DNA of 63,700 nucleotides, counting the filler, from Craspedostauros australis (lineage: Eukaryota), in assembly GCA_030167865.1 (NCBI GenBank). It is 11 parts of 11 records of this genome, joined end to end, with 100 filler letters (N's around TTAATTAATTAA, not from the genome) between each part and the next. Parts side by side here need not be neighbours in the genome. Positions count along the whole stretch, not along the records: positions 46,861 to 57,809 come from JALAGF010004569.1; 10 more parts are not named here. The stretch is one strand, 5' to 3'. The stretch's first letter is position 1, and every line of letters begins with the position of its first letter. Shown here in pieces: positions 24,531-63,700 of this stretch. The translations under genes and the position numbers were made by a program. The notes under the pieces were generated by a model, which was not told the DNA's origin, did no database searches, and saw nothing but the letters and a program-made list of their open reading frames with translations.

Positions 24531-24708
24531 NNNNNNNNNNNNNNNNNNNNNNNNNNNNNNNNNNNNNNNNNNNNTTAATTAATTAANNNNNNNNNNNNNN
24601 NNNNNNNNNNNNNNNNNNNNNNNNNNNNNNCAAACCAGTGACAACAAGGGGCCAAAACTCCACAACTAGTGTTATCGTGAGTGCATCAACTGCGACCTGG
24701 AGGTAGTA

Positions 24709-28875: not shown

Positions 28876-30684
28876 ATGCCGACCGTTTCGAACCAACAAC
28901 TCATTGCTGCTGCCAAGGCAGGTGATCAATCCGTGTTGAAGGAATGGAACAAGCAGCATGAAGGATGTGATACCAACTGGGTTACAGATGAATATGGTTG
29001 CACTCCCCTTCATTACGCATGCACCAACGGTCATCTTGATTATGCCAAGTACCTCATTGAATCAACTGGGGATGATATCAACAGCAAAAACAACCATGGT
29101 TTCACTCCCCTACATTGGGTATGCGGCAACGGCCAATTGGAATGTGTCAAGTACCTCATTGAATCATGCCAGGCAGATGTCAACGTCAAAAATACGAATG
29201 GTGACACTCCCCTTCATCGGGCATGCTACCAAGGCCGTTCTGAATGCGTGGAGTACCTCATTGAATCAACAAAGGCCGATGTCGACTGCAAAGACATGGA
29301 AGGTTCCACTCCCCTACATGACGCATGCGCCTATGGCCATCTGGAATGTGCCATGTACCTCATTGAATCCATGAAGGCTGATATCAACAGCAAAAACAAC
29401 TATGGTGACACCCCCCTTCATCGGGCATGCATCAACGGTCATCTGGAGTGTGTCAAGTATCTTGTTGAATCCACCAAGGCTGACGCCAACAGAAAAAACC
29501 TGCAGGGTGACACTCCCCTTCATTGGGCATGCTACAACGGCAGTTCTGAATGCGTGGAGGACCTCATCGAATCAACCCAGGCCGATATCGATATCAAGAA
29601 CAACAGGAACCAAACGCCCCTCGATATGATCAAAGCAGACGATCAAATCAAGATGATGAGATCGATCATCACTGGTCTCAATCACCGCAACTCAAAACTG
29701 CAGCTGCAAATGAACAAACAACGCCGCACAAACACCATCACAAACACCATCACAACATCATCCAAGCACAACAGCCCAGCCACCTGCACAACGACCAACA
29801 TCAGCATCAGCCAAGATCGTCGCAGCGCTGTTCTTACCGAGACCAAGCCAGACGTCACCTTCCTGTGTGGACAAGGCGATGAACAACAACCAATCAAGGC
29901 AAACTCCGGAGTCCTCATGGTCACCGTTCCATCCATTCAGACATTGATCGAATCTGGAATCCAACGTCAACGCTGGAATGACGGAACTGGTGACGAAACT
30001 AGTGACGAAACTGATGATGGCGCCGCCCCCATCCAAACAACCGTCCCTCTTCCCAATCATCAACCCAAACATGTCCGGCATGTCCTCCAATGCATCTACA
30101 CGGGGGAGATATCCTTCGATGATGATGTTCCTGACAACATTGAGACTGACGACAACGCTCATGACAATGCCAATGCTGTTGACGTAAACCAGCCAACCCC
30201 CACCCTCAATGGACGGGACGATTTACACCAGCTGATCCTTGTGGCCAACGAGTTCGGCTTCTGGCGACTCAAGCTTGTTCTTGAAGCGGAGTTGGCCCGC
30301 AAGCATCTCACCAAGGACATCATGACAGATACGTTGATATTCGCTCATCAACACAACTGTGTACTGTTGAAGGATGCCGCAACGAGGTTGGCAGCTGAAA
30401 GTGAGAAAGATATATTCACGCATCCAGATTTCAGCAAGCTGATTCTACAGCCCCAACTGATGGGAGGCATTCATGTCCTGTGCAGTGGAGGAGCCGAGAG
30501 TGATGAGGTTGATGATGAGTACAAGGGCATGTCCATGATGGAGTTGTACAAGGTTGTGGATGAAGGCGCGGGCACTTCGCGCGTGGATACATACATGGAT
30601 CGCGTCGCGTTGTTGGCTTTTGTGCGTTCCATCACATCCTCCAGAGTGATTGAGACTGACGGCACTGCCGAGGGCGAGGAGTGA
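28876..30684 (+). CDS. Ankyrin-repeat plus BTB/POZ domain protein
   Basis: Six full GxTPLHxAC ankyrin repeats (102-bp period) plus caps. BTB: PDVTFLCG...VLQCIYTG...LILVANEFGFWRLKLVLEAEL. Confidence 0.92.
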   Translation: MPTVSNQQLIAAAKAGDQSVLKEWNKQHEGCDTNWVTDEYGCTPLHYACTNGHLDYAKYLIESTGDDINSKNNHGFTPLHWVCGNGQLECVKYLIESCQADVNVKNTNGDTPLHRACYQGRSECVEYLIESTKADVDCKDMEGSTPLHDACAYGHLECAMYLIESMKADINSKNNYGDTPLHRACINGHLECVKYLVESTKADANRKNLQGDTPLHWACYNGSSECVEDLIESTQADIDIKNNRNQTPLDMIKADDQIKMMRSIITGLNHRNSKLQLQMNKQRRTNTITNTITTSSKHNSPATCTTTNISISQDRRSAVLTETKPDVTFLCGQGDEQQPIKANSGVLMVTVPSIQTLIESGIQRQRWNDGTGDETSDETDDGAAPIQTTVPLPNHQPKHVRHVLQCIYTGEISFDDDVPDNIETDDNAHDNANAVDVNQPTPTLNGRDDLHQLILVANEFGFWRLKLVLEAELARKHLTKDIMTDTLIFAHQHNCVLLKDAATRLAAESEKDIFTHPDFSKLILQPQLMGGIHVLCSGGAESDEVDDEYKGMSMMELYKVVDEGAGTSRVDTYMDRVALLAFVRSITSSRVIETDGTAEGEE

Positions 30685-32315: not shown

Positions 32316-33713
32316 GGCACCCGCAGCAGCGTCCTTGCTGCACAGGTCTTGGTTGCTGGCGAAGCTCCAACCGATCCGCTTGCCCAGAATTGGTCGAAAC
32401 TGAGATTGGGAGGTGTACATGCAACGCGGATCGCCGTTCGGAATGCAGCAAATCGATGACCGATGCGACGAACGATGCAACGGATGATGCGATGGCCGAT
32501 GCGATGGATGATCCGACGGCAGGAGCAAGGACTCTGGAAGGGTGGAGTGGAATGGAGTGGAGTGGAGTAAGATGAAGGACGTGTGCTGGATGGAGCAGGC
32601 AGTGCGGTAGAAATGAAACGACGGAGCAGATCGTTGGACGTTCGATGGTCAATGTTGTGGAACAATCCAATGAAATCCAATGCAATGCTGCCTCCTCTCG
32701 CGAAAACCGTCCAACGAATGGATTGCGTGGAGGAATGCCGCCTCTGGCCAATCCGCCTCTGCGCTCGTTTTCGCGCGATGTTCCAAAACTTCAAAATTCG
32801 AAAAATGCACGATCCGGAGCGACGCGGGACTCAGACAATCGATCCAAGAATCGGCGACGATCGAGGAGGCGTCGACCGTTCGGACTCGTTTCACGACTCC
32901 ATGTAGGCTTGTCTGATAGATGAGGCGTGTAGTGATCATTTCGAAACAGTTTTTTTTCACAGCCATCATCGCGAAACGGAACACTCATTTCAGGACTAAA
33001 CTGCCGACGTGTCAGATAGATGGGGCGTGCGGTACTCGTTGTTGGCGGTATTTGTGCGCAGACAGCTTCGAGGAATGGAACGACGAAACGCACAAGAAAA
33101 GAGGCCACAGATCGTGTTTTGTGCCATCGTGTTGTGCTTCCAGAAACAGAAAGAGGGTTGTGGACAGAAACAACCAAGAAAGCATCCAAGGGGGGCAGTT
33201 CAAAATGCAATAATTGGCTCTATTTCATAGCGTTTAAGTCATAAATTGCTTGTTTCCGCCTAGTTCTTATCCTCGACGGAATAATATGGAATTTTTGTTC
33301 TTTTTTGGATAATTGGTGCTTTCCCCCCAAAATTCGCACGAGTTGCTTTCGCTCTTCGTCATTGCTCCATTTCCCCACTTTACACTGTGTCGGTGTTTGC
33401 TGAGCGTGTTTTCGTCTCCGGTCGGCACAAAACAAGGCTGCTGTCTTGGGCCAGCACAGAGCACACAAAACTCACAACCCCAACACTCTCCACAGAGATC
33501 ATTGCTCCACAGAGCACTTCGTTCCTGTAACAATCACAATCACAACAACAACCACAACAGGTACACCAACATCACCACCGCAACAGTGTTTCGTCCATGG
33601 GTGGCTCCTGTATNNNNNNNNNNNNNNNNNNNNNNNNNNNNNNNNNNNNNNNNNNNNTTAATTAATTAANNNNNNNNNNNNNNNNNNNNNNNNNNNNNNN
33701 NNNNNNNNNNNNN

Positions 33714-35658
33714 GTTCGTCGAAGTGGCACTGGTTGCAAGCCTCGCCTGGTGTTGTCGGGATTTGAGTGCACACGCCGTCGCCAAGGGTGATGTCGGCGT
33801 TGAAGTAGAATCCGTATCCCATGAATTGGCACGAGTACAGTGCGGTGCAGGCCAACGCTCCGATTCTGGTGTTGCCCTCGAACTGGTTGTAGTAAGTTTC
33901 ATCGATAATATTACCCACCAGGTCGTACTCCGTGTAGGTGTAGTGCGAATTGACGTAGGAGCACGAACCGTTGTTTGCGCAGGAGCCCCTGCCGATGTTG
34001 ACAAACGAATTTCGCTTGTTGTCCGTGCCCATGTTGCCTCTCGTCGGGGTGGAAGTGAGGTACTCGGCAGTTCCGGCTCCCAGTGCCGCGCACGAATTCG
34101 TTCCGAGGCAAGAAAATGGTTGGACGATGCTGTATCCGTTGGCCTGTGCTCCGAGGGAGTAGCACGCGGAGCCGCCCAGGCAGGAGAATGGGCCGATGAT
34201 GCCAGTCCTCTCACTACCGGAGTTGAAGTTGAAGTAGGAGCAGGCTTTGTCCTGGCCGGGGTTTTGGCAGCTCGACTGGAACACGATCGTTTGCGGTTCG
34301 AGGTTGTCGCAGGAGTTCATTCCGATGCAGCTATTGGCGCTGATGCTGGCGACGCCGACCCAGCTGCAGTCGGCGGCACCTCCGGGGCAGCAGGTGTTGC
34401 CAGACTGTTGGCAAAAAGCGATGGCATCTGTGGCAGTACCCGTGAAGACTTCTCCAGTCGCGCTGGCGGCCTCCTGGAACTGGGCGAGGACTCCGGAGTT
34501 GTCCTTGATTCTGTCGAAGAGCGCGACTCCTTCAGTAATGCTGTCCTGGTTGGCAAAAATGCTGAGAAGATCGGTCTCGTTCTCGATGGTGGCGAGTAGG
34601 TTCTGGCCGTTGGTGTCTGATGGTGTTCCCAACTCCGCCAAGAACTGAACAATATTCGGCGCCAGGCCGCTGGTTGGTGCCGAAGTGGGTGTTGACGTAG
34701 GTGCTGATGTAGGTGCCGACGTGGGTGCTGATGTAGGTGCCGAAGTGGGTGCTGATGTAGGTGCCGAAGTAGGGGCAGACGTAGGTGCGCTGGTCGGTGC
34801 CGAAGTAGGGGCAGAAGTGGGAGCGCTCGTCGGCGCCGAAGTAGGGGCAGACGTTGGTGCGCTGGTCGGTGCCGCCGTGGGTGCGGTGGGTGCTGACGTT
34901 GGCTGCGAAGTCGGTGGGATGGTCCCGGATCGTGTCGGGCCCGCAGTTGGTGCTGCTGTTGGTGCGGTTGGGGACGATGTCGGTGCGCTGGTCGGCGCTG
35001 ATGTCGGGATGCTTGTCGGGGCCGATGTCGGGGCGCTTGTCGGAGCCGATGTCGGTGCGCTGGTCGGTGCTGATGTTGGGGCGCTTGTCGGAGCCGATGT
35101 CGGTGCGCTGGTCGGTGCTGATGTTGGGGCGCTTGTCGGAGCCGATGTCGGTGCGCTGGTCGGTGCTGATGTTGGGGCGCTTGTCGGAGCCGATGTCGGG
35201 GCGCTGGTCGGTGCTGATGTCGGTGCGCTGGTCGGTGCTGATGTTGGGGCGCTTGTCGGTGTCCTGGTCGGTGTGCTGGTCGGTGCCATGGTGACGTCTC
35301 CGTTCTTGGCGCCCTTGTTCATCTTCATGCCGTCCTTGTTCATCTTGCCGTCATCACTGTCGCTGGTCATCATGGTGGGTCCTTCCGTGGTCTTGGCCTT
35401 CTTCTTGTCCATCCCCCCGCCCGCACCAGCGGAGCTGTCCATGTCCTCCTTGGTGCGGCGGAGCCTCCTGGTGAGTCCGGTGATCTTCTCAACCGTCTTC
35501 TCCGAGTCGTCTCCGTAGTAAGTCCACGCGAGCTTGTTGGCTCCGACCTTGGCATCGTCTCTGGAGGGTGAATGCATGCCGGCAAGGAGCTTCTCATCTT
35601 CGACGGCGGAGGCGGCAGCGATGTGCGCCAAAACGAGTGAGCTGATGCGATACTTCAT
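33714..35658 (-). CDS. Secreted mucin-like PTSA-repeat protein with Cys-rich C-terminal repeats (3' truncated)
   Basis: Signal peptide MKYRISSLVLAHIAAASA, >40 PT[SA]x tetrapeptides, then IGxxSCxGxxxC repeats. Confidence 0.9.
34672..35285 (-). repeat. 12-bp coding minisatellite (PTSA) with a 48-bp higher-order period in 35030-35260
   Basis: GGGGCGCTTGTCGGAGCCGATGTCGGTGCGCTGGTCGGTGCTGATGTT recurs on the + strand. Confidence 0.95.
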
Positions 35659-36894
35659 GGTTGATGTGTGTGCGTGGTATCTGAGTTGAGTATTGATAGA
35701 CTAACGTGGAGGGAGGGCAGGGGGCGGATATTAGATATTGAAGCGTCTGCATTGTGGAGAGGTGCACGGTGCCATGCGTGCCGCACGAGTGAGTAGACCG
35801 AAGACGCCAGTGGGCAAAGGTATAGCGGCGGAATGGCAGGCAAAGATGCGGAAAAGAAGAGAAATGTGAGACAAAATGCCCAAGTTTGCTCCGGCGTTCT
35901 CCACTTGATTGGTATTGCGGGAGATCGCGTATCGCGGACTTATCACAGATGCATCGCACATCATCCATCGCTCTGGATCTCGTCTCGCGATGAGTGAAGG
36001 AGCTGCCGTGAACGGCTTGCACACAAAAAACGCAGTGGACCAGCGGAGGCGAGGACCGCAGGAGAATGACTATTTCCTATTCATCCTGGCACCACCCTCT
36101 GCATGTTTTTCATGTTGTGCCGTCCTGCACCCGGTCTTCGCGTTCTGTTTGATGAAGATACAAGACGACACATGGAATGGACCACGTGCTTGGCGTTGCT
36201 CTCGATCGGATCCATGCCGAAGGCCCATGGGCCCTTTGGTTTGTTGTATTGCCTGCGGTCCATGATCGCATCACTGGCACAGCTCCAGTGCACAAGCCGC
36301 ATCATAGAATTCGCCGCATCCAATCACATGAAAACAACCTTCCGACATACAGTATCATTGTGTATGCATGGTGATGTGCTAGTGCGTGTGTGGCAACTAT
36401 GCCTGGCGCAGCGCGGTGTGACTCACCGTGATGTTCGTGCTGTTTGCTGTCGCGGAATGGGAGTGATTGATTGCGTCTGCGTTTGAGCTGGAGCGGCCTT
36501 GAGATTTGTGAGAACGAAAATTGATGTTGGGATGGGACAACGGAGGTACGCAGAGAGTAGGTGCTTCCGCGGTGGTTGGCGGTTGTGCTCTGCAGGTGTG
36601 GACGCTGAAGACTGATCGTTTTTGAATCATTCTCCGCTTTCAGCCAACGTTTTCGTTTGCGTCATCATCTGCGCGTCTCGTGTCGCCGCGTGCTACATCA
36701 CAACAACGCGGCTCTGAACACCATCATGGCACCGTCGTGCCGTCGAAGCGCGCTGCAGTGCAGACCAGGGCCTGTTGTGCACAACAACAACACCNNNNNN
36801 NNNNNNNNNNNNNNNNNNNNNNNNNNNNNNNNNNNNNNTTAATTAATTAANNNNNNNNNNNNNNNNNNNNNNNNNNNNNNNNNNNNNNNNNNNN

Positions 36895-39627: not shown

Positions 39628-39727
39628 NNNNNNNNNNNNNNNNNNNNNNNNNNNNNNNNNNNNNNNNNNNNTTAATTAATTAANNNNNNNNNNNNNNNNN
39701 NNNNNNNNNNNNNNNNNNNNNNNNNNN

Positions 39728-43026: not shown

Positions 43027-43179
43027 NNNNNNNNNNNNNNNNNNNNNNNNNNNNNNNNNNNNNNNNNNNNTTAATTAATTAANNNNNNNNNNNNNNNNNN
43101 NNNNNNNNNNNNNNNNNNNNNNNNNNTGCAAAGGAGAGACCTCAAGACACACAGAAGACGATCCTATCTAGCGTTAGTG

Positions 43180-46760: not shown

Positions 46761-47099
46761 NNNNNNNNNNNNNNNNNNNNNNNNNNNNNNNNNNNNNNNN
46801 NNNNTTAATTAATTAANNNNNNNNNNNNNNNNNNNNNNNNNNNNNNNNNNNNNNNNNNNNCTTTTGCACCTCATCTTCACGCAGTAACACGCACATTTGC
46901 CGTGTTGTCTCCGTGTTAATTTCACTTGCAAATTGCATGAGACCTGTCATGTCTCTCTCATGCTCACAGTTCNNNNNNNNNNNNNNNNNNNNNNNNNNNN
47001 NNNNNNNNNNNNNNNNNNNNNNNNNACAGTAAACAAACACTCTCCTCACCAACAACAACGACTTGATCACTCTACGTTCTCGGTGCGGTATCCTTCACA

Positions 47100-50000
47100 C
47101 CCATCTACGATTACGTTCTAACAGAAGGAGTTGGAGGGTCCATCCCCATCCAATCCAAGGGCACACTGTCATGGACAATACTTGACAATGATGGCAGGCC
47201 ACTGCAGATTTAGATATCCAATGCTTACTACGCGCCACGGCTTCGCATCCATCTGTTCTGTCTGCAGCAATGGTCTGACCAAGGCCCTCACAATCACCAC
47301 TGCAGGCACCTGCGTACCTGCACGACATACGGCAACTACACTGTCCTGCGCTCCTCACGTTGCAAGGTCACAGTATATCATCATCCAGGCACCAACCTGC
47401 CTTTGATGTCTGTCGCCAACACCAAGTGACATGCGCCAGCATTCCTCACTACTTCCAGTCCTCCAAGCAACTCTGAACTTCTCAACATCAACAATGTCCC
47501 CGATATCATGATGGAGGTTCACGAAGATCCCAAGCTTGCCAAGTTGAGGCCCGATCCTCTCCAAGACAACAACACACTGGTCTGTGATCAGTTGGCAACA
47601 CATCCTGTTGGTGCGTCTGACGCACAAGGACAGCTACTCCGGTGGCATCATCACTTGGGACACCTACCCTTCCGTGTCTTGTGCAACATGGCGTCACACA
47701 GCATCATACCACGACACTTGGCCACGGCCAAGTTCCCTCTCTGCATCTATGGCAAAGCCGTCCGTCGGCACAGGCCAAACCATATCATGCACGTTGTCAA
47801 ACGAGCGCGATTCCCAGGGCATATAGTGTCAGTCAACCAGATTTTCTCCTGCCAGCCTGGGGTACTTCCGCAGCAAAACGGCACGCACACCTGGTCGCGA
47901 TACACATGCGTGACAGTGTTTGTTGATCAGTACCTTGGTATTGAGTACGTTCACTTGCAGCTCATCCAGTCTGGTGCCAACACACTGCAAGCCAATCAGG
48001 CTTTCGAGCGCTATGCTCACTCATTCGGTGTCTGCATACACCACTACCACCCCGACAAAGACAGATTCGCTGAGCAGCTGTTCCGCACGGCTGTCGCAGC
48101 AGCCAATCAAATCATCGCATTCTGTGGAGTCAATGCTCACCATCAGAATGGCGTCGCCGAGCGACGCATCCGCGACCTCCAAGAGTCCACTTGCTCGATG
48201 CTCTTGCATTCGCAGCACCATTGGCCTGATGTCATCCATCCGTCTCTATGGCTGTATGCTCTGCGTTACGCCTCTGAGATCCGAAGGAACGCTGCTCGAG
48301 AGGGAGGTATATCGCCACTCCAGCGATTCGCGCAGATCAAGGTCCAACCCTTGATGTAACACTTTCACACATTTGGATGCCCTGTATACATCCGCAAGGC
48401 CGCACTGCAACAGGGATCCCAGGTTCCCAAGTGGAGCAGCCGAGCCAAACATTGCCATATTCCTTGGCATGTCAGCTGAACATGCAAGCAGCGTACCTAT
48501 CGTTCTCAAGATCGACACAGGGTACATATCGCCACAGTTCAATCTGAACTTCGATGGCAGGTTCCAAACGGTCAAGACCAACCCACTAATGCGTCCTGTC
48601 GCATCGCAGTGGCAGCGTCTCACACACATCGACGAACCAGCCGAGCCCTCGCAACAGATTCGCTCCGAATGCATCACACGTGCTGTTCAGCACCAGCTTT
48701 CCGCAAGCACGCGTCCTCCAGGGACCACACACGCTGCACCTGATGCCAAGCCATTCCAGCTTGACATGCAGCACAAGATGCACGACCTTCCAAGGTCCAG
48801 CCTTCCAAGGCACAGTCTTCCAAGACAACCAGCAAGCTCACCTTCAGAGGGAGCTACGCCATCGCCACACAGAACGCATCACGATCTGCTACATCCGCAA
48901 CAGAATGTGCAGAGACCAACCAGACTACACTCCAACTCCAATCCTACCACACATACACTGCTCAATCCTTCCACGCATCTGACATCCTCAACATGAACTC
49001 GGGCGATCTGCACCCTATGTCATTCGCAGCAACACTCGCAGACGATGACACTATGTACTGGGGGCAAATGCAGAAGCAGCATGACTGTGACAAATTCATT
49101 GAAGCAATGCACAAAGAGATCGAAGACCACCAATCCAGACAACATTGGGAGGTCATTCAACGCACTCGTGTGCCAAAAAGGCACAAGATCCTGAAAGCTG
49201 TCTGGTCATTCAAACGCAAATGCAGACTTGCAACCGGCGAGATCTACAAGTGGAAAGCACGGCTACGCGTGCATGGAGGAGAGCAACAATATGGTGTCAA
49301 CTACTGGGAAACATTTGCACCTGTTGTGCAATGGTCCACCATCCAGACATTCCTCACCATGGCCGTCCAACAGCACTGGCACACTTGCCAAATCGACTTT
49401 TTGTTCTGGAGTTCCCACAAGCGGATGTGGAATGCGACATCTTCATGCAAGTACCTCAGGGGTGCAACATGGACGGAGACAGCAGGTCTCACGTTCTCCA
49501 ACTCAAGAAAAATCTGTACAGCACCAAGCAAGCAGCATTGGTATGGCATCGGCATGTGGTTGACAGCCTGATGCAGCATGGATTCCGGCAAAGCCAAGTT
49601 GACGAATGCCTTCTCTGCAAGGGCAACACATCCATTCTGCTGTACGTTGACGACACCATCATCATTGGCCCACGCAAACACGAGATCGATGACATCATCG
49701 AGCGCCTCAAGGCACGGTTCACACTAACCAACGAAGGCAACATGGATGATTATCTGGGCGTTCACATCCAACGTACTGATGACACCATCACACTCTCACA
49801 ACCGCAACTCATAGATCGAATCATACGAGCAGCCAAGATCGATCCTGACTCACCAGGACGAACCTATTCGACGCCAGCCGTCAAACCGCTCCTATACAAG
49901 GACACTGGTGGCCCTGCTGCCACTTGGCGATTCGAATATCAGTCAGTTGTGGGGATGCTCAACTTCCTCACATGATCAACGAGACCTGATATCTGCTTCG

Positions 50001-50635
50001 CAGTCCATCAATGCGCACGCTTCATGGCTCATCCGATGAAGTCACACAAAGATGCCATCGAATGGATTGTACGATACCTTGCTCACACATGGGATATGGG
50101 ACTCCGCATCTCACCTACCCAATGACTCCATTCACTGCTATGCTGATGCAGACTTCGCAGGAGGCTTCACACAAGCCAACAACGACCCCAACACGGCAAA
50201 AGTCGTACCGGATATGTCATCCTGTATGCAGGATTCCCCATCATATGGAACTCCAAACTGCAAACAGAAGTCGCACTCAGCACCACAGAAGCCAAGTACG
50301 TGGCTCTCAGCCAAGCTCTATGAGAGGTTATACCCATCATACACCTCATCAACGAAATGAAGCAGCACATATCGTCATTCGACACTTCTCTGCCAACAGT
50401 TCACTGCACAGCATTTGAGGACAACTCCGGTGCCCTCGAACTCGCAAACGCACCCAGAATGCGTCCTCGTACCAAACACATCAATGTCAAATACCATTAC
50501 TTCCATGAAGCTGTCAGCAAAGGGCTCATCACCATCGAACAGGTCGACACGTTGGACCAGATGGCCGATATATTCACCAAGCCCTTGGCACGTTCACTAT
50601 TCAAATCTCTGCGATTGCGACTATTGGGATGGTAA
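47100..50635 (+). pseudogene. Degenerate CoDi-type Ty1/copia pol (integrase-RT-RNase H)
   Basis: WHHHLGH, HQNGVAERRI, WKARL...YWETFAPVV, LYVDD, YADADFAG, FEDNSGA...RTKHINVKYH, QMADIFTKPL. Multiple frameshifts. Confidence 0.95.
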
Positions 50636-50668
50636 GCACGGTCCGCTCGTGCCACCGACAAGAGGGAG

Positions 50669-50858
50669 TGTGCAGATTAAGTGCCAATTCACGAATCTGG
50701 CCGAATCCGAACGATGATTGTCAATGGGCAGACGATACCGCACAAACGACGAGTAGGATCCACACTGAGCAAATGACCACCCTGCACGGACATAATTTTC
50801 AGAACAGATAGGTTTCACCCCATCTCCCACACTTCCGGTCACGTGAAAAACCTTCACA
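50669..50858 (+). repeat. 3' LTR (190 bp) after a PPT
   Basis: PPT AAGAGGGAG (50660-50668); termini TGTGCAG...CTTCACA. Confidence 0.75.
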
Positions 50859-51099
50859 AAGATTTGATTGTGCAGAAATATTTGCATATGAGAAGACACT
50901 TCTTCAACCACTGACCTCCAACCAAAACAAGAAACCTGATAGAGAATGGCTTGGGTTTGAGAGAAGTGCAAACCGAATCATCTTGAAATACATGAATACG
51001 ATCAACCAAGAGGTGCAGACAGCAGAAGAGAGAGAGAGAGAGATAGCTTAAGTAATCATATTTTGGTCTTACATCCACAACAACAACATCCATCATCAT

Positions 51100-51768
51100 T
51101 AGCAAAACAACATCAATTGTATGAACATCAATCATCCGTCGGCATAAGGCAACATGCCAATGATTGTTCTTAGCATAGTCGGCAAACCGAGGAAGAAACA
51201 ATTCGATATTGCTCAGGTACGGTAAGGCAATGGCATAGAAGTAGGTGTAGAAAGTACAAACAATGCAGGAGATGCAGATGTTGTCCATACTTAATCTCAG
51301 TTCCATGTCACAGAAACGTCCACGATGTGCCAGACAGTACAGCATGAGCAGCAATCCCATTTCATAGGATACCAAGTATTGGTTCTTGACCTGAATGCAT
51401 GCAGGGTCATTCTCACCAGACACTGCCTGGAACTTTGGCCAGAGACGGTCAGCCAAGCATTGGAGGTAGCATGCTTGGAAGCGGAAGTGAGGAATAGCTT
51501 CGGTGTCAGCCAATTCTAAGATGGCAATGTTTCTGTTCGTATACAAAGGAGGAGGACCCAATGGACGGAGATAGAGCTGCTGCATCTCTAGCACATGGCA
51601 GCCTAATGCAATAGCGTGACTGTAGTACTCCACAAGAATGGTGACACCAGTGTAGTTCAGACCCTGCACATCAATCTGCGAAAGCTGATTCACAGCCTCG
51701 ACAAATCGATCGTGGGCTTCTTGCAATGCCTGCCTCTCTGGAAGGGAGTTCCAAATACGCAGCACCAT
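51100..51768 (-). pseudogene. Truncated PIF/Harbinger-like transposase (N-terminal HTH region)
   Basis: HFRF...L..LADRL...LLLMLYCLAH...DME...ISCIV pattern; DDE core not seen. Confidence 0.6.
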
Positions 51769-52139
51769 TAGAAAGAGAAGGACCAGCTACAGTGCGTGGA
51801 GAAAGGTTGTATATGCGAAAGCGTGGTGAACACGGAAGAATTGAAGAAACCACGAGTATAGCATCAAGTGCAGTGTGGAAGAAATCTGTCATGCAGGTAC
51901 CAAAAACCGGAAGGAGGTGATGTGTCGACAGAGGCATCAGCAAATGTGATGTTCTTCAGCACGAATCAAACCGAACGTGACTAAATTAATCGCACAGTTT
52001 TGGCGCGAACGCAATATCGCTCGAGTTAATCCAAGCAGTATTCTGTCACGAATCAGTCCTGTGCGGTTTTCGTGCTCGAGATTCAATGCGAACCGCGACA
52101 TGACACAGGGGCCGGGGGAACAGAATGCGAAAGTCCTCT

Positions 52140-53509
52140 AATGGAACACACGAAAATGAGCAGAATTTCTGGAGGAAATTTGCAATCGACGATTTCTGAG
52201 AGAATTAGAACATCGTCCGTCCATCCATCAATGGTTGATAATCAGCAACTACACACAGGAAAAGGGCACCAAACACTGCACTTACTACGCCGCCAGGGTG
52301 ATCAATCCATCAGGTGGAGTTGGAGATGTTTGGTGTTCTTTGTTGTTCTAATAGGTTGTGTCCAATTGATGATTGAGTTTGGATTATGAGAACATGATCT
52401 CATCATTCCAAAGATGGTGCCTATTGCACGAGTTTCTAATGTGCTGCTCGATTACCTCGTGGTTTATCTCGCAGTCTTTCCTAAAACATTGCCCAAGATG
52501 GCATGTTGATTTACACGATATCNNNNNNNNNNNNNNNNNNNNNNNNNNNNNNNNNNNNNNNNNNNNNNNNNNNNNNNNNNNNTCTGTTTGATCATATATG
52601 GATTGATCCGTCTACGTCGACGAGGTGCATGCATCACCTCTGACAATGTTGTTCTGGATCCTAAATGTTGTTGCCACGTGCTCAATGATGCATTTGGCAT
52701 TGCTAGACAGGTCAGCATACCATGACTAAAATATAATCTCGATTCCGAGGATCACAATGACCGATCCTCTGACGTCATACGATGATGTCAGTGCCTACGT
52801 CAGGTTCGATGACTGTAGTGACTGAATCTCAATCGTGTAATCAAGACTCACTCGACTATACTCTCAAATCGAGTCGAATCAAAAATAATGAATCATGTTT
52901 CAGTCATGGGAGATAGGTACCTAATTTCGATCTAGATGTTGATAATGGTACCAAGAGAATCTCGAGGTACTTCCCAACTAAACCTCAGATGACGATATCA
53001 TCTGACAGGTTGCTGCATCACCAATGGAACATGACATCTGGAGAGCAGAAGGACGCCTACTGGCATTGACAGGATGTCATCGTGTCACCATGTCGACATC
53101 TGTCTCCAAGTCAGAGCAAGAGGCGAAGATCCGATGACCGAAGGACATCAGGATCATGGATATGGGAGATGAACTTCAAATGGTAAGTACTCATGGAGTA
53201 GGAGCCAGTACTGAATGAACGGAGTGTTGAATGTGGAGTACGCATCGAACATGGAGTATCGTGCAGCACGAAGTACACGATACTAAGACAAAGAGAGAGA
53301 GAATACAAAGAGCAGCGAGAGAGCATCTCGCACACCGACTCATAGTCAGAGACCAAATCTACAAAACAGATTGAAGCGCCAAGATCATCTGGCAAGAGAA
53401 CGGACACCGAGAGGATCGGAGTGCCAACGTAATGAAATAGCAAACGAACAACTATTAACCAACACCATCTTCCACGATCGTAGGTTACCGTGAGCGTAAC
53501 TTGCCAACA
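52140..53509 (+). repeat. Family A LTR copy (may start at TGTCACG, 52044); contains an N gap
   Basis: 53150-53509 matches 21410-21762. 52140-52230 and 52965-53155 are inverted matches to 55186-55277 and ~54960-55152. Confidence 0.7.
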
Positions 53510-55277
53510 ACTTTCAGGTTGAACGTGAGTTGGTGATGGAAGTTCACGATGTGAGTTTTGTATTCGTTGCTTACTGTGCTGAGGATCTGCATGATCATCT
53601 CCTCTTCGCTGATCGTGTATTCGACATCGTGGAGGCGGGAGCGTAGAAGCTCGAGCCATGTGATGTAGATGGCGGGGTCCATGTCTCTCTTCATCTTTTC
53701 ATTGTTGAATTGACGCTTGAGTTTGATTTTGGTTGCTGCATCGGATGGTTGGAACTTCTCCGCGAGAATGTTCCACACTTCATGTGGTAATCATCAGAGA
53801 CGCACTGGTTGATGTATTGGATGGCCTGCTTGCCCTTTCCCTTCTCTGCGTCTATCATGAGGATTAGATCGCTGAAGCAGTTGGCTGCCAGCTCATGGAC
53901 TTCCTCCATCGACTCCTTGTCTTTTCCTCTGGCTTCTCCGATCTCACTCATCGTTGGGATCTTCGTCTTGCCCAACATCACATCTATTGTCTTCTGCGTA
54001 CGCACATACGCCTTCGCTTGGGACTCCCAGGCATTGTAGTCCTCCTGACTACCACTGAACAACGGCGCCTTGATGCGTCGCTTGTTCATTTTGGCTGATG
54101 TCGCCATGTTGCTTCGTTGTTTTGTTGATGGTGCGCGCACGCTCCTGATTTCCGTTTGTTTCTGTGTGATGACTTTTTCAATTTTCGCTCATGTTTGCGC
54201 GGAGATGTGTTTCGTCACAAATTCTCCTCTGCGTGCCGTCTCACTTTTTCCGTGTTGCTTGGCTGTGCGAATGCTCTTCGTCACACCAGTCTCTTCTTGT
54301 TTGATCGCCTTGAGAATGCTCTTCTGCACGAATCATAGTCTCGCAAACCATTCCTCGTTGGTCTCATTGGTTGTGCTTCCTTCTTCGTTAGAGAGGACAG
54401 TGGGCGCACCCACTTCCTTCTGCTGTTGAAGTCAAGTCTCACTCGCACCTTCTTCTTGCTTGATAGCCGGATTGGACAGAGGGATGTCTTTCAATTCCTC
54501 TTCCTTGCTCATTCAGCCTACTGCTCTTGAAGGATGTTGTCTCCCTCGTACGATCCAATCCTCAGGCTTGCCCTGATCTATCGTTTATAAACATGTTGGC
54601 AAGTCTTGTGAACAGATACTTTGCGATTGTGGAAGACGGTATTGATTGTTACGATTATGTTTGCTATTTCATTACATAGACACTCCAATCCTCTCAGTGT
54701 CTCTTGTTCTCTTGCCTGATGCTCTTGGCATGTCTCTCTTGTTGGTCTGACTATGAGTTGGTATGAAAGATCCTCTCCCGCTGTTGTTCATGCTCTCTCT
54801 CGCTCTCTCTCTCAATGTTGCCTATTCACACCATACAATATTCCGTACTTGACATGTACTCCGCATGCAGTACATACTCCGTCGTTTTGTTCTCTGTTGG
54901 CCCATTACTCTGTGAGTAGTCGCCAATACTCCCACACTGCATTCCTCCTTGCATACTCACGATCTTGATGTCCCTTTAGTCATTGAATCTTTGCCTTCTT
55001 GATCTGATGTTGAGACGGATGTCGACATGGTGACACAATGGCATCTTGTCAACATCAGCTGTTGGTTCCATGGTCCTTCTGATTCCACATTCCATTGATG
55101 ATGCAATGGTCTGGCAGATGATATTGTCATTTGAGGTTTAGTTGGGAAGTACATCAAGCTTCGCTCGATGCCATACGTTTGCAGTGATGGATGGACGGAC
55201 GATGTTCCTGATTCTCTCAGAAATCGTTGATTGCAAATTTCCTCCAGAAATTCTGCTCATTTTCATGTGTTCCATTT
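53510..55277 (-). pseudogene. Decayed family A copia: 5' LTR remnant (54594-55277) and truncated gag (ATG 54512 to 53510)
   Basis: Clear paralogue of the 21845 gag (MATSAKMNKRRIKAPLFSG..., WNILAEKFQPSDA) with stops and frameshifts. Confidence 0.92.
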
Positions 55278-55324
55278 CCACTGTGATTTTGACCATCACA
55301 GCATACTATTGGCACTAATGTAGT

Positions 55325-55903
55325 TGTACCGTCCGTACATATATAAGAGAATAACGGGTGAACGATGCACATATACATGTACATCTTGACATGTACTCAC
55401 ATGTACATCTCGACAGCCCGGTCGGCAGCAGCGACGTTGCGACCAAAAAGCACAATCCCTTCGTCAACATCTACAAGGACGGCAAGGAGGATACCCTGCG
55501 GCGACAGATCCAGCGCACGAAGAACCGTGCCACCAACATCCTCCTCGAGAGCTCGCAAATCGACCAAATGGAGGATGATGATCAAGGCCTGCGCGTGGAC
55601 CAGCTGCTGCAGGAAACGGATGAGATCCTGGAGGAGGCCACCCTCGAGATCAAAAAGTCCGAACACAATCGCAACAGCTGGCATATCCGCAAGGCCATCT
55701 CGCTGTGTGACGACGATGATCTTGACGAAGATTGACAATTCTCACAGAATTCCTTACTTCTTACTTCTCTACTAATCCTATTAGTCAAATACTGGTCGGG
55801 GGGCTGTCTTCGGACAGCACTCACAAATAAACAACAAGAGCTCCGACCAGGGCACGAAACAACGGGCCAATACATCTTTCGTAGTTACTTGCACTGTTTG
55901 ACA
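55325..55903 (+). repeat. Putative 5' LTR (~579 bp) of copia family B
   Basis: TGTACC...TTTGACA termini, AATAAA at 55826, immediately followed by a PBS-like sequence. No second LTR in the window, so the left end is tentative. Confidence 0.6.
55391..55735 (+). CDS. 114-aa acidic helical ORF within the putative LTR
   Basis: Uninterrupted ORF with mostly C/G-ending codons, similar to the adjacent gag; no recognised family. Confidence 0.55.
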   Translation: MYSHVHLDSPVGSSDVATKKHNPFVNIYKDGKEDTLRRQIQRTKNRATNILLESSQIDQMEDDDQGLRVDQLLQETDEILEEATLEIKKSEHNRNSWHIRKAISLCDDDDLDED

Positions 55904-55924
55904 GATTCAGAGTCGTGCTTACCA
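55904..55924 (+). promoter_or_regulatory. Primer binding site complementary to the 5' half of tRNA-Gln(CUG)
   Basis: GATTCAGAGTC is the reverse complement of the anticodon arm GACTCTGAATC. GTGCTTACCA is the reverse complement of the D-arm-like TGGTAAGCAC. Confidence 0.75.
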
Positions 55925-55979
55925 ACACTGAGCAACACCCAACACCACATCACCTTTTACCATCGTACGAGTTACCACC

Positions 55980-57377
55980 ATGGACCGGCCAACCAACATC
56001 AACACCTTCAACAAGATCATCCAAGAGCTGGTACAGCTCGATGACGAAGAGATGGCGTTCATCGGCGAGAAACTCGGGAGAATCGATCGTGTCATCCGCA
56101 ACTCGGACGCCACCATCGTGGCGGCCTTGGCGCTCTCGCCAACGCTGTCATCAATCAACATCACCAACATCCTGCGCATCTTCGCATACGCAAGGTCCAA
56201 CACCATCACCGCACGCACCGATTGGGCAGCAATCGACTTGTTCAACGAAGCGAACAGCTACGAACCACCGGAAGTCAGCACGCCAGTTGCGAACGCTGCT
56301 GCTCAAGTGCGATCGGAGATGGCGATCAGGGAGGCAGCCGCAGCAGCGGATGCCACTGGGACAGCGGGTCGCGAAATCACCGTCAGCTCACCGAGCCGCG
56401 CGAAACGCACCCCGCGATCACCACGAACCCCACGGACTCCATCAGGATGGAAGTTCGACAAGATCAGCATGCCGGAGGCACCCGAATTCACCGGGAACAA
56501 CAGCGACTGGTATGACTGGAAGATCGCGTTCAAGCGACAGCTGGTTACATCCAGATACGCCGCGTACCTCGATGTCGACAAGCCATCGCATTTCGCAGAG
56601 GACATCGACGCGCAGCTCTACACTGTCCTGCACACCAAGACAGAGAAGGGATGCGCGGCATTCATCGTGGAAGCACACGAACCGAACGGCCATGACACAT
56701 ACCAGGCGCTCATACGCAACTATGAATCCGTCGACCACAAAGCTGAGGCCATCGCAGAGGAAGAACAGAAGATCGCCGAACTCCGTTACGACGGATCAGA
56801 GCCATTCCCAGTATTCGTCAACGCTTTCTCCAAGTGCATCCGTGTCATGGAGCAGAACGGAAAGCAGATGACCGACCAGCAGAAGATCGCGAAGTTCTTT
56901 CGCAACATCACCGACGACCGCTTCACAAGCGAGATGTCCAGATTCCGCAACACGGAACACTCCTTCAACGCAATTCGTGAGGCGTTCATGCAACATGACG
57001 CGCTCCTCACGAAATCGGAAGGACACTACTCTCCCAAGCGCAACCGTCGCTACCAACAGAAGGACACCAAGGATGACCGCAAGAGGCTGCGCGAATCCTC
57101 CAAGTGGGATCGCAAGGGCGCCGCATCGTTTCGGTTGCCGGACTCCGTCTTCCGTCGCATGCCGGTGAGCACTCAAGTGCTCCTCGTCGAAGCATCTCGT
57201 CACTTCCGCACCACTGGGAAACCAATCGATGAGGAAACCCTCAAGCGCAACAAGCCAACAGAGTACGCGCGCAACCTGGAGTTGCCCATGACCCAGCGAG
57301 GACCCAAGCGGCCTCGCACGGGCGATCACAAGACCGGACGACCTGGCACCCAAGGACCATGGAACGCCGGTTCTTGA
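55980..57377 (+). mobile_element. gag of copia-like (CoDi) family B
   Basis: PEFTGNNSDWYDWK, and YDGSEPFPVFVNAF...MTDQQKIAKFFRNI (UBN2-like); basic C-terminus; intact 465 aa. Confidence 0.85.
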
Positions 57378-57809
57378 CAATCAAAGACGGGCACAACTCG
57401 CCGTCAGTCGGAGATTGTCATCCACCTCAAACCCCGCGACTGTAGGGGGGCGAGCGTGACGACCGCAGCGGGAATGCCCGGACGTGCACGTCCGGTGGCA
57501 CCACAAGAGTCCCGTCCGTGCACAACCCACCCGACAGTGGAGCACTGCATCCGAAGGGCAAGAGTAACGAACGATAGCCAAGGCTTTATCATCCTAGACT
57601 CAGGGGCGGACGGAGACATCGTTCATGCGTCGGGCTGGGAGGTGACCCACACACACCAACAAGAGTTTCGTGCCCGAGGGGCGACGATCAACTCACCAAT
57701 CGAGACATTCCAGATGGTCGACGCCGTGGCAGCATACGAGCCCCCATCAGGCGGCGTGATCCTCATCAAAGCAAACTACGTGGCTCTCGACAAGCATCCA
57801 CAGCAGACG
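57378..57809 (+). mobile_element. pol N-terminus (aspartic protease), in frame with gag after a single UGA
   Basis: No stops from 57378 to the contig end. IILDSGAD active site and VDAVAAYE...VILIKAN, a CoDi-type protease. Confidence 0.85.
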
Positions 57810-57909
57810 NNNNNNNNNNNNNNNNNNNNNNNNNNNNNNNNNNNNNNNNNNNNTTAATTAATTAANNNNNNNNNNNNNNNNNNNNNNNNNNNNNNNNNNN
57901 NNNNNNNNN

Positions 57910-59471
57910 CACTGTGGGTAGCCATAAGCCGGTCAAACGTAATGCGTTGTCCGCGCTTCTCCAGGCTCATCACAACGCCGTGGTTGCTGATGTCGAAGCC
58001 GCTCTCAAGCGCTTTGTTGATGCTGAGAAGGTTCACCCACAAATTGGGCACGAACTTCACGTGCTTGAGGAGGATGGTTGCGGTGGTNNNNNNNNNNNNN
58101 NNNNNNNNNNNNNNNNNNNNNNNNNNNNNNNNNNNNNNNNNNNNNNNNNNNNNNNNNNNNNNNNNNNNNNNNNNNNNNNNNNNNNNNNNNGTCATCCCCT
58201 CGTCGTTGTTGGTCAGGTGGCACGAGGCACCTGAGTCGCCCAACCAAGTGTTTGCCTCATGGCGGTCTGGGGCGAGTGTGATGCGGCGTTCTTCGACGCC
58301 GTCGATGTCGCCGACCACCATTGCCATGTCTGGTTGCGGGTTTCTCTCGCTGTAGACGGGGAGTTCTGGGAACTCACCTGGGCCGCGAACTCCGTAGTGG
58401 CCTGGGTGGTACTTCCACATGACTTGGAGTGCTCCACGCGAGGCCAGGCTCCCGATGAGTCCATGGTGGATGGCTGGCAGCTGCTCCTTCTCCAGCCTTT
58501 CGTTGATGAACGGCATGTTCTTCATGACGTTGAACGGGGTCATCATCCCGATCTCGCGTAGGAGGAAGTAGAGGGTGCGAGCATCCGCGCAAGTGCGTCT
58601 GTCTCTCGACTTGTACTCCTTCACTGTGTCGAGGCATAGTAGGGCAAGCTCGCAGCGCACACTGTCAGCCGGCATGGCGTTGCTCAATGAGTATCGCACT
58701 GCGAGTGCGAGGGACTCCTCCTTTGCGAGCATTGCGCGGCGTTCATCGCGTTCTTCGTGGGTTGTCGGTTTCACCACGTCCGTTCCTTCCGGTAGATCGA
58801 TGAGGAATGGCTGGGCTGGGCAGTCGACGCAGTACGAGTAGATGTACCCTTGTTTGAAGCATAATGGACATGATGCCCATCCTTGGTACATTGCGCGCGC
58901 TGCTACTTCAATCGCCTTCTCGATGGGAGGCTTGTTGGTGGAAAGCGAGAAGATAGGCTCTCTGCAGATGTCTTCCGCTCCGATCACCATTGCCACTTCA
59001 TTGGTAGACTCCTCGTCGGTGCTGACGAGGTCTTCATCGTAGATGACTTCATCGAAGAACCCGTCGTCATCGGTGGACTCGTCTTCGGACGGGAAGAGTT
59101 CGCGGTTGATGCGCTCGGCGGCGACCGCCGGTGGTCCGTAGTGACCATACACCCCTGGGTGGTGGGCCGCCCGCTCTTCAGCTGTCCACTCGGAGCCTTG
59201 GTTTGGCTCTTCGTTGCCTTGGTCGGCCATCTCTTCGTCGGTGGACGTGAGGGCGAGGTCTTCGGTGGTCTCCTCTTCGGGAGGCATCATGGCGTAGTCG
59301 TTGCTCATGTTTTTCTTGATGTTCGCAATTTCTTGGGTTGTTACGAGTCTTGGGTTGGTCACATTTTTGACCTCAGTCGAATCAAGATCGAACTCGTTGG
59401 TGAGGAAGCACAGCATTTCCGTGCTATCCATGGACTTGTCGTCTTCGGGCAACCAGATGGGCTCCTCGATC
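57910..59471 (-). mobile_element. Ty1/copia fragment: long gag-protease spacer and protease
   Basis: WLGDSGASCH and LKHVKFVPNLWVNLLSI. Spacer contains CPLCFKQGYIYSYCVDC. Confidence 0.88.
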
Positions 59472-59571
59472 NNNNNNNNNNNNNNNNNNNNNNNNNNNNN
59501 NNNNNNNNNNNNNNNTTAATTAATTAANNNNNNNNNNNNNNNNNNNNNNNNNNNNNNNNNNNNNNNNNNNN

Positions 59572-60409: not shown

Positions 60410-62552
60410 CTATAATATGTTACATACTCGTACACTAAGAGCACAGTCCACTACTCCATGTACTGCTTCGAGCTTGCTAGATGGAGCAGATTGGACTTCC
60501 TCTCTTCTGGGTGCGTCGCCATTGGACGCCTCTTCGTTGATTGTTGCGTCCTCCTTGCCGTCATGCCCGCATTCGTTCCGCTTGGCCTCCTGTCCTGTTT
60601 GTGTTGATTGGATGCTTTGCTCCGTCGCTGCAGAAGGGTCCATCTCTTTGCTGCCATCGTGTGTTGACGAAGACCCCATTACCTGACTGGGATCATCTTG
60701 TGCTGAACATGATCGAGTCTTTGCGCTGGTCTCGTCTTGCGGAGTGGGCACTGCAGATGCAGATGCCGTCTCCGAAATGATGGTTGTTTGTGAAGACTTC
60801 TTGGTGCTGGCATCGGCTTCTTTCGTTTGTGCGTTGTCTCTTGCACGTCCCATGGTGCTGAGAACCCCAATGGTGGCCATCGATGCAACAGCCGGGGCCA
60901 ACAGCTGTGATGAGGTGATGCCCGCCTTCTGCTGACCTTTGCTCTCCTCAGACACCACTGCGCCTTGTTTTGCCCGTGAGTTTGTGGCTGTGGCCGTCGT
61001 GGATTGGGCTGGGTTGTCCACGATTCCATGGGATCCATCTTGTGGCACACAATGCCATCGCCGCTCTCACCGTCGTACACTTCGAAGCTTGTGCTGTCGT
61101 AGTTCACAAGGTCGATGACTGGTGCTGCACCAGCTGGGTTGGTGGTAGACTTGTCGGCGCCAGTGCTGTGTGCTGAATCGCGTGATGCAAGGGCGTCGTC
61201 TCTGTCACCAATCCATGGATCCTCATACGAATGCTTCTCCTCCATGGAGTCGCTGATAACGATGACGCCATTGGAATGACTCTGCGATGGTCGATTCTGC
61301 TGGTGATCATCGTTACCCTTGTTGTCACTGGAGCAGTGGTCATCTTCGTCGTCGAGCACAATGATCTCTTCGACATTTCGCGAGCGGGAGACGCTCTCTG
61401 CTGTTTTTTTTTGCTCGATGGAATAATTCCCAGGTGACGCACCACCCTGGCTTCCGTGGTCGGTGACATCAATTGGGTCATGTCCAGTAGGAGCATCACC
61501 AACATCAGCATTGTTGCAATCCTTTTCTGCATTCATCAACGACTTGGTCATGATTGCTGCGCCGACCCCAAGGACAACTGCTGCACCTGCGGCTACTCCA
61601 GTCGAGGCGTTCTTGGTGACATCGTCCAATGACGACTTCGCTGAGCTGATCGACTTGTGGGATGAGTTACACTCGATGTGACCAGTCGAAACAGTTGCTG
61701 ATGCTTCTTGAGCGGCGTCGGCAACATCGTTTGTTGAGGCCGCAGACGTGTTGTTGGTGTAGCTGCTATTGACAGGATTCGAGTTGGCGCTTGCGCTCGT
61801 CACCACGCTGACTGCAGGGCTGCCGTCAGCTGTGGCTTTGGCTGTGGTCGTGGTCGTGGTTTTGGCCGCAGCTGCCACAGATGCCGCCGTAACGACTGCT
61901 GCGGCCACGCCAATAGCTGCAGTGGTTTTCAATGTGTTGGCGTCGTCGTCCTTGTTGCTGTTGTCATCTTTCCCGAAGCTGCGATCGCTCTGAGTTGTGG
62001 ATGGCCTCGATTGGTCTTGGTGCCCGACCAGTGCCCCAACCTTTTCCAAGTCAGAGTCCAACAGGCTGTTCAAGACGGAGTCATTGAACGACGAAGGGCG
62101 TTCGTTTTCTGCAGAGCTGGAAGACAACTTCCTGGTGGAAGCTGCACCAGATCTCACCGACCGTTCATTCTTGGAGACGGTGAATTCGGAGGCTGTGGAT
62201 TGACCGCTGTTCGTTCCTCGCGCAGGCATGAGAATATCCATGCCCTGGACAACTGGGATGTCATCAGATGAACGTACGGTTTCCACGAGGTGGCCGACTA
62301 TCACTGGGTTGGCTGCACCGGCGACTAGTTCTTGCTCTTCAGATCCTGGTTGACATGCGTCATTGCTGGCAGATTTGTCCTTGTTGCTGGTTTCGTATGA
62401 ACTACCAGCAGCCAGTTTGGCCGCAGCAAGGTCCATGATGTCTTCGAGAGGAACCGGAGGAGGCCTGTTGGTCTCTGTGAGAGGTTCGATGCCTTCTCTC
62501 TGCATCTGCAAGCGAATCATTGCTGCAATCTTCGCCTCGTAGTCAGATGATG
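60410..62552 (-). CDS. Low-complexity Ser/Thr/Ala/Asp-rich hypothetical protein, 5'-partial, with apparent frameshift near 61050
   Basis: Open from the contig edge. Composition continues in the second frame (60410..61048) after ATTGTGTGCCA. Confidence 0.6.
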
Positions 62553-62652
62553 NNNNNNNNNNNNNNNNNNNNNNNNNNNNNNNNNNNNNNNNNNNNTTAA
62601 TTAATTAANNNNNNNNNNNNNNNNNNNNNNNNNNNNNNNNNNNNNNNNNNNN

Positions 62653-63700
62653 GATGTGCTTCTCTGGTTCTTTGTTCTCGTCCTGCATCGACAATCCGAT
62701 GTCGATCGCTGGTGATTCGGTAATGATTGCATTCATCCTGTATAGTCCTGTTGTGCTATAATGAGTGATCTCAATCTCTCCTTCATCTGCAATTTCTTCA
62801 TCATCTGTAGTTTCGTTGTTGGAGTCGTCGATCTCCTCGTCGCTGAGTTCATCACTGTCTTCGTTGGATGATGGATCGCTTTCATATCCTTCTTCCTTTC
62901 GACCTCGTTCGTTGAAGTCTGCGAGCTCACGTAGAGCTCTGGGAATACTCTTCCCTGTAGTTGACTTGGGATTGGTTTCTCCCTTCCTGCCTCGTGCTTC
63001 GTGACGTCGGATCCTCTCCTTTCTAGCTATGTCACGCTTGTTTGGCTTGTTCGGTGGAGGTCTGGATGGTGTACCTTGTGTAGACCTCGCTGGTGTGTTC
63101 GGAGGAGTGACGCCTGTGTCATCGTCGGCTTCGTCGCCGGATGGTAGGATCTCGTCATCCTCATGATTGGATTCGCTCCGATCTTCCTCGTCGTTATGGA
63201 TTAGTTGAGTCACTACTCCATCGTCCTCATTATCCTCATCGTCGCTGTCCGATAGGATATAGTATCTGTTGCTGTCAGCGAAAGAAACTCTCTTCGCTTC
63301 CGATGTTTGACGCGTTGCCGTCTTTGGCGTTGCTCCCTTCCGTCCGATGGTTGTGAAGCCGTCTGCGTCTGTTGTTCCTGTTTCGTTGGATATGTTCGGT
63401 GCTGGTGCCCAGCCACGGAACTGTCCGTATGATTGATTGAGCCACTTGATGTCGCGTGAGCANACGAGTGACTTNGTCGATGGTCTGTACATGTTGTAGA
63501 CCCCTGATGCNTGTTGGTGTGCATATCCGATGAACACCATCTCTTCTCCTCTATTCTTGAGTTTAGCGGTGATCCCGCCGTAGGTAGTCTTCACAACACC
63601 CACCTCTCCGAAAGTACGGAGTGCATCCGCGTATGGTGGATCGTTGCCGAAGAATTGTCGATGTGGTGACTCCTTTTGATTCTTCGCTACGGTGATGTTG
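62653..63700 (-). mobile_element. Ty1/copia pol fragment: integrase end, SH3-like domain and linker to RT
   Basis: LRTFGEVGVV...KLKNRGEEMVFIGYA...VYNMY...SRDIKWL, followed by an acidic linker ending EPEK. Confidence 0.88.

Follow-up and report, generated by a model that had tools for sequence, protein, structure and literature searches.

The first 1.9 kb of a retroelement lies at the end of a contig, which cuts it off within pol, and its sequence together with a modelled protein fold indicates that it is of the copia/Ty1 type. Present are a putative U5 and a putative primer-binding site (PBS), the gag gene with an in-frame TGA at its end, and the beginning of a protease (Table 1). The window, meaning the whole stretch of DNA that was analysed (63,700 nt, filler included), is a chain of eleven separate contigs with ten linkers of the form N44-TTAATTAATTAA-N44, an all-frame stop spacer, between them. 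Adjacency across a linker is meaningless, and the site described here lies within the contig at positions 46861-57809.

Table 1. Features of the retroelement and linkers of the window (positions are those of the window).
Feature	Position	Strand	Remarks
Upstream region, would hold the 5' LTR	55277-55903	+	proposed 3' end …TTTGACA at 55903
Stem CTGGTCGGGG/CTCCGACCAG, 10 bp	55792-55850	+	predicted; encloses hairpin and AATAAA
PBS block 1, putative	55904-55914	+	GATTCAGAGTC; complement of tRNA-Gln(CUG) nt 30-40
PBS block 2, putative	55915-55924	+	GTGCTTACCA; complement of tRNA nt 16-25
Block 3	55925-55928	+	ACAC; complement of tRNA nt 10-13 (5' strand of D stem)
gag (P0001)	55980-57377	+	intact, 465 aa; copia/Ty1-type capsid by remote homology and fold
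gag stop TGA and CAA TCA	57375-57383	+	in frame; pol goes on in the same frame
pol start	57378-57809	+	aspartic protease motif DSGA at 57597-57608; cut by the contig end at 57809
Linkers 1-5	21306-21405, 24531-24630, 33614-33713, 36795-36894, 39628-39727		
Linkers 6-10	43027-43126, 46761-46860, 57810-57909, 59472-59571, 62553-62652		

The gag, pol start and upstream region of the element

The gag product (P0001) has no match of its own in Pfam, and a word-indexed protein search returned nothing at either the 'near' or the 'longer' lengths. An exhaustive phmmer search retrieved 35 remote relatives (best 1e-28, 30% identity), and when Pfam was run on the 36 aligned sequences (P0001 and its relatives), Retrotran_gag_2 was detected in 22 of them and Retrotrans_gag in six. 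A profile search of PDB sequences gave a single weak match, to a Copia VLP protein (E 0.26). The AlphaFold2 model of P0001 (pLDDT 79.7) placed the Drosophila Copia capsid first in a fold search (8vvw_A, E 3.5e-3, prob 1.00, with no match below E 0.001), followed by Ty1 Gag CA-CTD in several chains (TM 0.74-0.81 among the Ty1-derived CA-CTD chains listed) and then by HIV-1 CA. Ahead of the capsid core there is a helical N-terminal domain (residues 1-125, 55980-56354; pLDDT about 90-97) that has no family assignment and is common to P0004 (residues 11-70 align). P0004 is the closest relative of P0001, and a transcriptome collection of marine eukaryotes also contains it as a transcript. For the ORF adjoining the site, a language-model look-up led to clusters of hypothetical proteins from eukaryotes, for which Bacillariophyta is the sole phylum recorded; this is a lead and not an identification.

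Apart from the in-frame TGA, the reading frame is unbroken over 1830 nt of gag and protease. The CAA TCA that follows the stop codon fits the CAR-YYA consensus for read-through (PMC2194720), and in the one copy seen the TGA could be either a programmed read-through signal or a nonsense mutation. The predicted fold of the gag-pol junction is not significant, and the pol start has no match in Pfam.

Next to the element on its upstream side, a repeat of a copia family on the minus strand extends to about 55273, and at most about 625 nt are therefore left for an LTR. Its 3' end at 55903 is an assumption, and the LTR itself is putative. A search for terminal inverted repeats that would mark its start gave weak candidates at 55290 (7/12) and 55723 (8/12). 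No direct repeat or second copy of the region upstream of 55904 occurs in the whole window, and the absence of a second LTR there is as expected, because the copy is truncated at the contig end. Searches of the window and of metagenome, viral and genome contigs likewise yielded no second LTR, no solo LTR and no other copy with its DNA, and the Gag relatives are known as proteins alone. The exact 21-mer of the PBS (with W at one base) had no occurrence in the metagenome contigs and no zero-gap match in the viral or genome contigs, and there were no loci for P0004 in the metagenome contigs or for the Gag relative P0008 in the genome contigs. When viral contigs were searched with P0001, one weak match was obtained inside an ORF of 1871 aa, and was rejected as spurious; the contig, which is without repeats, we take to be of phage origin from its ORF layout alone.

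The putative LTR contains a single AATAAA (55826-55831), which lies inside the predicted stem, as does a perfect 6-bp hairpin with a TTCG loop (GCTGTC-TTCG-GACAGC, 55803-55818). The arrangement possibly resembles the poly(A)-signal hairpin of an R region, and the AATAAA, the stem and the CA end are compatible with R-U5 without being proof of it. The fold of the 196-nt stretch that includes the stem is not significant overall (z -1.27), nor is that of the leader. Just upstream, an ORF of 126 codons (55355-55735) has no relatives in a word-indexed protein search, and its sole Pfam entry is a sub-threshold match to MLKL_N.

Complementarity to tRNA-Gln(CUG) ahead of gag

The upstream stretch ends in ...CACTGTTTGACA, with its last base at 55903, and the three blocks of Table 1 follow one another directly from 55904 to 55928. 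The earlier note had described …TTTGACA up to 55903 followed by two blocks, and had remarked on the lack of a TGG-type PBS; both descriptions are correct, for up to the ORF the sole TGG after 55903 is the one that its start codon at 55980 shares, within CCATGG. The site lies in sense orientation 52 nt ahead of the gag ORF and starts directly 3' of a CA dinucleotide (55902-55903).

Block 1 is complementary to an internal stretch of the tRNA that takes in the end of the anticodon stem, the loop with the anticodon CUG and the first two nucleotides of the 3' strand of the stem, where it ends at nt 40. All 11 positions pair with the printed human tRNA-Gln(CUG), as they do with each of 13 tRNA-Gln(CTG) genes that were fetched, in the latter case by construction. 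A second segment complementary to the same tRNA, as seen in bipartite PBSs, is also present. After nt 26-29 of the tRNA are skipped, block 2 matches the D loop and the 3' strand of the D stem, pairing at 9/10 positions with the eukaryote-type tRNA (the mismatch is a U opposite U20) and at 10/10 with three of the genes, which read TGGTAAGCAC. Block 3 pairs at 4/4 positions after nt 14-15 are skipped, and with four bases is weak alone. The alignment thus leaves nt 26-29 and 14-15 of the tRNA without a partner, and bears out the earlier statement that two blocks are complementary to the tRNA with about four of its bases looped out.

The tRNA-Gln side of this pairing is sequence borrowed from other organisms, not the host's own, and neither ARAGORN nor Rfam detected a tRNA gene or other RNA family in the whole window. 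Human tRNA-Gln(CUG) is printed as ...TGGTTAGCAC-TCTG-GACTCTGAATC... in a figure legend (PMC5159642) and in a methods section (PMC11096365), in agreement with the sequence that had been given in the earlier note, and provides an independent check for block 2 and for the 4-nt gap. Further tRNA genes were sought with a pattern of the two blocks separated by a free gap of 0-8, and with a second version that had W at one base. The pattern search found two tRNA-Gln(CTG) genes in viral contigs, and the W version gave 11 loci in prokaryotic genome bins, corresponding to 11 complete tRNA-Gln(CTG) genes, plus one cut copy. All 13 complete genes match by construction, having been retrieved with a pattern built from the blocks. 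Ten are nearly identical to the human tRNA, with TGGTTAGCAC, a gap of TCTG, TCAG, TCAA or ATTG, and then the anticodon block; the remaining three carry TGGTAAGCAC, to which block 2 is exactly complementary, and have a gap of 3 or 4 nt.

To gauge the strength of the match, the reverse complement of a eukaryote-type tRNA-Gln was compared by local alignment with 636 overlapping 300-nt windows that cover the whole stretch on both strands. The site ranked first with a score of 31, the runner-up reaching 24 (mean 15.4, sd 2.5). Not one of 20000 random 100-mers of local composition scored 31 (maximum 30), and a Gumbel estimate puts the probability at about 2e-5. Block 1 by itself is much less telling: against one tRNA, 97 of 20000 random 100-mers scored at least 22, and as there are about fifty tRNA species, any one leader will commonly match some tRNA over 11 nt, so that block 1 alone is not significant. 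When block 1 was held fixed and the next 30 nt were randomised, 31 was reached in 358 of 50000 trials (about 0.7%). Because block 1 alone is weak, the significance rests on the combination of blocks and on their location just 5' of gag. Three positional facts were not fitted, namely that the match lies in sense orientation 52 nt ahead of gag, that it starts after CA and that it begins at tRNA nt 40. Duplex energy was rejected as a discriminator, since GC-rich places elsewhere score as low or lower (-34.6 kcal/mol at the site; -36 or lower at 8 of 4903 other positions in the window). Taken together, these results support a complementarity to tRNA-Gln(CUG) that is real and non-random.

A tRNA-Gln half as candidate primer

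On balance, and with chances that we put slightly above even, 55904-55928 would be the PBS of a Ty1/copia-type LTR retrotransposon, probably from a diatom or some other marine protist, that is primed by a 5' fragment of tRNA-Gln(CUG), a reading that draws on the sequence and on analogy with known elements. A cut behind nt 40 of cytoplasmic tRNA-Gln(CUG), within the 3' strand of its anticodon stem, would yield the 5' fragment that serves as primer. Its last 11 nt (30-40) would pair with 55904-55914 and place its 3'-OH next to the last base of U5, A55903, from where reverse transcriptase could extend it into U5 and R to give minus-strand strong-stop DNA, as experiments have shown for Drosophila copia and Ty5. 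The known primers of these two elements end at tRNA nt 39/40. Contacts with the D arm (nt 16-25 and 10-13) may stabilise the complex while nt 26-29 and 14-15 bulge out on the tRNA side, and the result would be an interrupted, extended primer-template duplex for which Ty1, with its split PBS, offers a parallel in principle. The LTR end is assumed; that the tRNA is cleaved, that it primes and that blocks 2 and 3 have any function we infer by analogy with copia and Ty5. A half-tRNA-Gln PBS was what the earlier note had proposed, and that proposal is partly supported, by the complementarity, the sense orientation, the copia-type gag 52 nt 3', the preceding CA and the end at nt 40, and by the good documentation of half-tRNA priming in Ty1/copia elements; its suggestion that replication is tied to regulated production of tRNA halves is speculation.

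A more elaborate version of this proposal appears doubtful to us. It holds that a copia lineage of a protist, probably a diatom, primes with a 40-nt fragment of tRNA-Gln(CUG) on a deliberately interrupted PBS of three blocks, covering nt 10-40, the extent of which is set by tRNA modification. Among the 13 fetched genes, it is in the skipped nt 26-29 that the anticodon stem varies between species, and the paired blocks are invariant, the genes having been selected by those blocks. The match stops at nt 10, next to G9. In many eukaryotic tRNAs G9 is m1G, which blocks reverse transcriptase, and the 18-nt PBS of retroviruses is set by m1A58. If this version were true, half-tRNA priming would be combined with multi-contact binding like that of Ty1, replication would depend on tRNA cleavage, and a tRNA modification would set the extent of the PBS, as m1A58 does for the retroviral PBS.

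Primers that are cleaved or internal tRNAs are well established in Ty1/copia elements. According to a review (PMC5371799), the primer of copia is a 'half-tRNA' and that of Ty5 an iMet that has been cleaved internally, and in C. albicans the PBSs of Tca2/gamma, whio and zeta correspond to a stretch inside tRNA-Arg(UCU), with a match described as 'extensive' in gamma (PMC4139406); the earlier note had cited copia and Ty5 (iMet) and Tca2 (Arg) as precedents, in agreement with both sources. Like copia and Ty5, the element described here is of Ty1/copia type and its PBS would pair with the anticodon stem-loop region and not with the tRNA 3' end. It differs from these two iMet-primed elements in that the tRNA would be Gln(CUG), in that pairing would reach into the D arm with two bulges, and in being known from sequence alone. 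With Tca2/gamma, whio and zeta it shares the use of an internal region of a non-initiator tRNA, and Tca2 also has gag and pol in one frame with a UGA between them (PMC2194720), the same layout as here. The tRNA and the host are other than in Tca2/gamma, and interruptions break up the extended match. The text of PMC4139406 reports tRNA-Gln as a primer in C. albicans solely by way of its 3' end.

The choice of tRNA varies by lineage among copia families with a PBS for the anticodon region, and the present element resembles them in this type of PBS. The fungal element FunCo1 has a PBS against an internal, anticodon-region part of tRNA-Lys (PMC5445492), and when its printed PBS is set against the printed tRNA-Lys, the match ends at nt 39 by our own indexing. 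Copia and Helenus families of rust fungi match the anticodon loop of Tyr, Ile, Asp, Asn or iMet tRNAs (PMC10886601). In plants, Osser, Bryco and Gymco-II are listed with 1/2tRNA-Met and Bianca with 1/2tRNA-Ile, half-tRNA primers being restricted to Ty1/copia elements (PMC6317226). Across these sources, half-tRNA primers are reported only in Ty1/copia elements, and the tRNAs involved are iMet, Arg, Lys, Ile, Tyr, Asp and Asn. No report of a half-tRNA-Gln primer was found in the main texts, and supplementary PBS tables may list one.

A point against the half-tRNA-Gln PBS is the 4-nt loop-out next to the priming helix, for which the same half-tRNA literature, as far as its main texts go, offered no documented precedent. 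Bipartite PBSs are described for Ty1 and Ty3, the segments of Ty1 being separated by a small internal loop (PMC5371799), and as in these elements the primer tRNA would contact the genomic RNA through more than one segment. Unlike Ty1 and Ty3, which use the native 3' end of full-length iMet and contacts in its T and D arms, the primer here would be a 5' fragment, with all contacts within 25 nt. For the CoDi copia elements of diatoms, which by the lead given above probably come from the same host group, reported LTR lengths are 153-844 bp, and gag and pol are separated by at most one stop codon or frameshift (PMC2806351); both features fit the present element. The word 'tRNA' is absent from the text of that paper, which hence gives no PBS type.

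Several tRNA species are thus already known to act as internal primers, bipartite PBSs are known as well, and the general picture would be unchanged, copia primer choice being varied already. What would be new, if the half-tRNA-Gln reading is right, is the tRNA species, Gln, and the host group, and the interrupted extended duplex may be a new variant as well. Confirmation would make tRNA-Gln(CUG) one more tRNA with a 5' half that primes Ty1/copia elements, and would extend the mechanism to a protist lineage for which the main diatom paper (PMC2806351) contains no PBS description in its text. It would also provide a natural split-duplex half-tRNA primer, useful for learning how much pairing these reverse transcriptases need.

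Alternative readings of the match

The interruptions could reflect damage to this copy: in active copies the complementarity to tRNA-Gln nt 10-40 would run without a break over about 31 nt, and two small deletions and one substitution would have broken it up here. The three blocks are collinear with the tRNA and are a 4-nt gap, a 2-nt gap and one mismatch away from such a complement, the in-frame TGA could be a mutation too, and gamma/Tca2 of C. albicans has an extensive match to an internal part of tRNA-Arg(UCU) (PMC4139406). However, one frame runs through the 1830 nt of gag and protease, and beside this intact frame two indels in only 31 nt would be unusually dense and are unlikely to stem from random decay. 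We consider damage of this kind unlikely, and the two gaps, judged from a single copy, are probably original.

The complement may also be genuine and have another role or origin, for instance in packaging, translational control or tRNA-fragment-guided silencing, or as the relic of a template switch, with the true PBS or the priming elsewhere. Targeting of PBS-like sites by tRNA fragments has been described, for 3' fragments (PMC12853362). The LTR end at 55903 is assumed, and 110 nt upstream there is a TGG-initiated, G-rich stretch, TGGTCGGGGGG (55793-55803), as an alternative PBS. That stretch is preceded by AC, not CA, lies inside the predicted stem, and would, by our reading, call for a tRNA in which the acceptor end is C1-G72, an uncommon pair there. 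The tRNA-Gln match, on the other hand, starts exactly where known half-tRNA primers end, directly after CA. A different role or origin therefore seems improbable to us, and priming by the tRNA-Gln half is still preferred.

Chance resemblance, in the leader of a retroelement with some other priming, we regard as slightly less probable still. Both the tRNA and the place were free to choose, and some 50 tRNA species multiplied by several gag leaders bring the probability to a corrected value of roughly 1e-2, a rough figure that precedes any counting of the positional coincidences. These coincidences (the beginning after CA, the end at tRNA nt 40, and the sense-strand place just 5' of gag) speak against chance, as do the random leaders, none of which reached the score, and the first rank among the 636 windows. 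Self-priming like that of Tf1 is unsupported, as 55277-55903 holds no complement of at least 7 nt to the leader.

The rest of the window contains further retroelement sequences. Another copia family is present with its LTR and leader twice, inverted, in one contig (52140-53514, plus strand; 55276-54600, minus strand), and its arms are up to 96% complementary, which could be either a palindromic rearrangement or an assembly artefact. The same LTR and leader are found again at 21406-21767, in the contig at 21406-24530, and the gag of this family (Retrotran_gag_2) is seen at 53488-54188 (minus strand) and 21845-24586 (plus strand). A degenerate copia pol with several frame changes extends over 47430-50700 (plus strand) and includes a gag_pre-integrs domain and RVT_2 (E 1e-27); its C-terminus looks, by eye, to be presumably of RNase H type. 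Three small contigs carry, all on the minus strand, an unrelated gag with the copia-type protease motif LGDSGASCH and Pol_BBD (57914-59452), a Ser/Ala/Thr-rich ORF of 613 aa that belongs to no family (60679-62520), and an integrase C-terminal SH3_retrovirus domain (62605-63699). Tandem arrays, unrelated to the PBS site, occur at 34605-35323 (12-nt unit), at 28996-29601 (102-nt unit, inside an ankyrin-repeat ORF) and at 24735-25216 (unit of about 196 nt).
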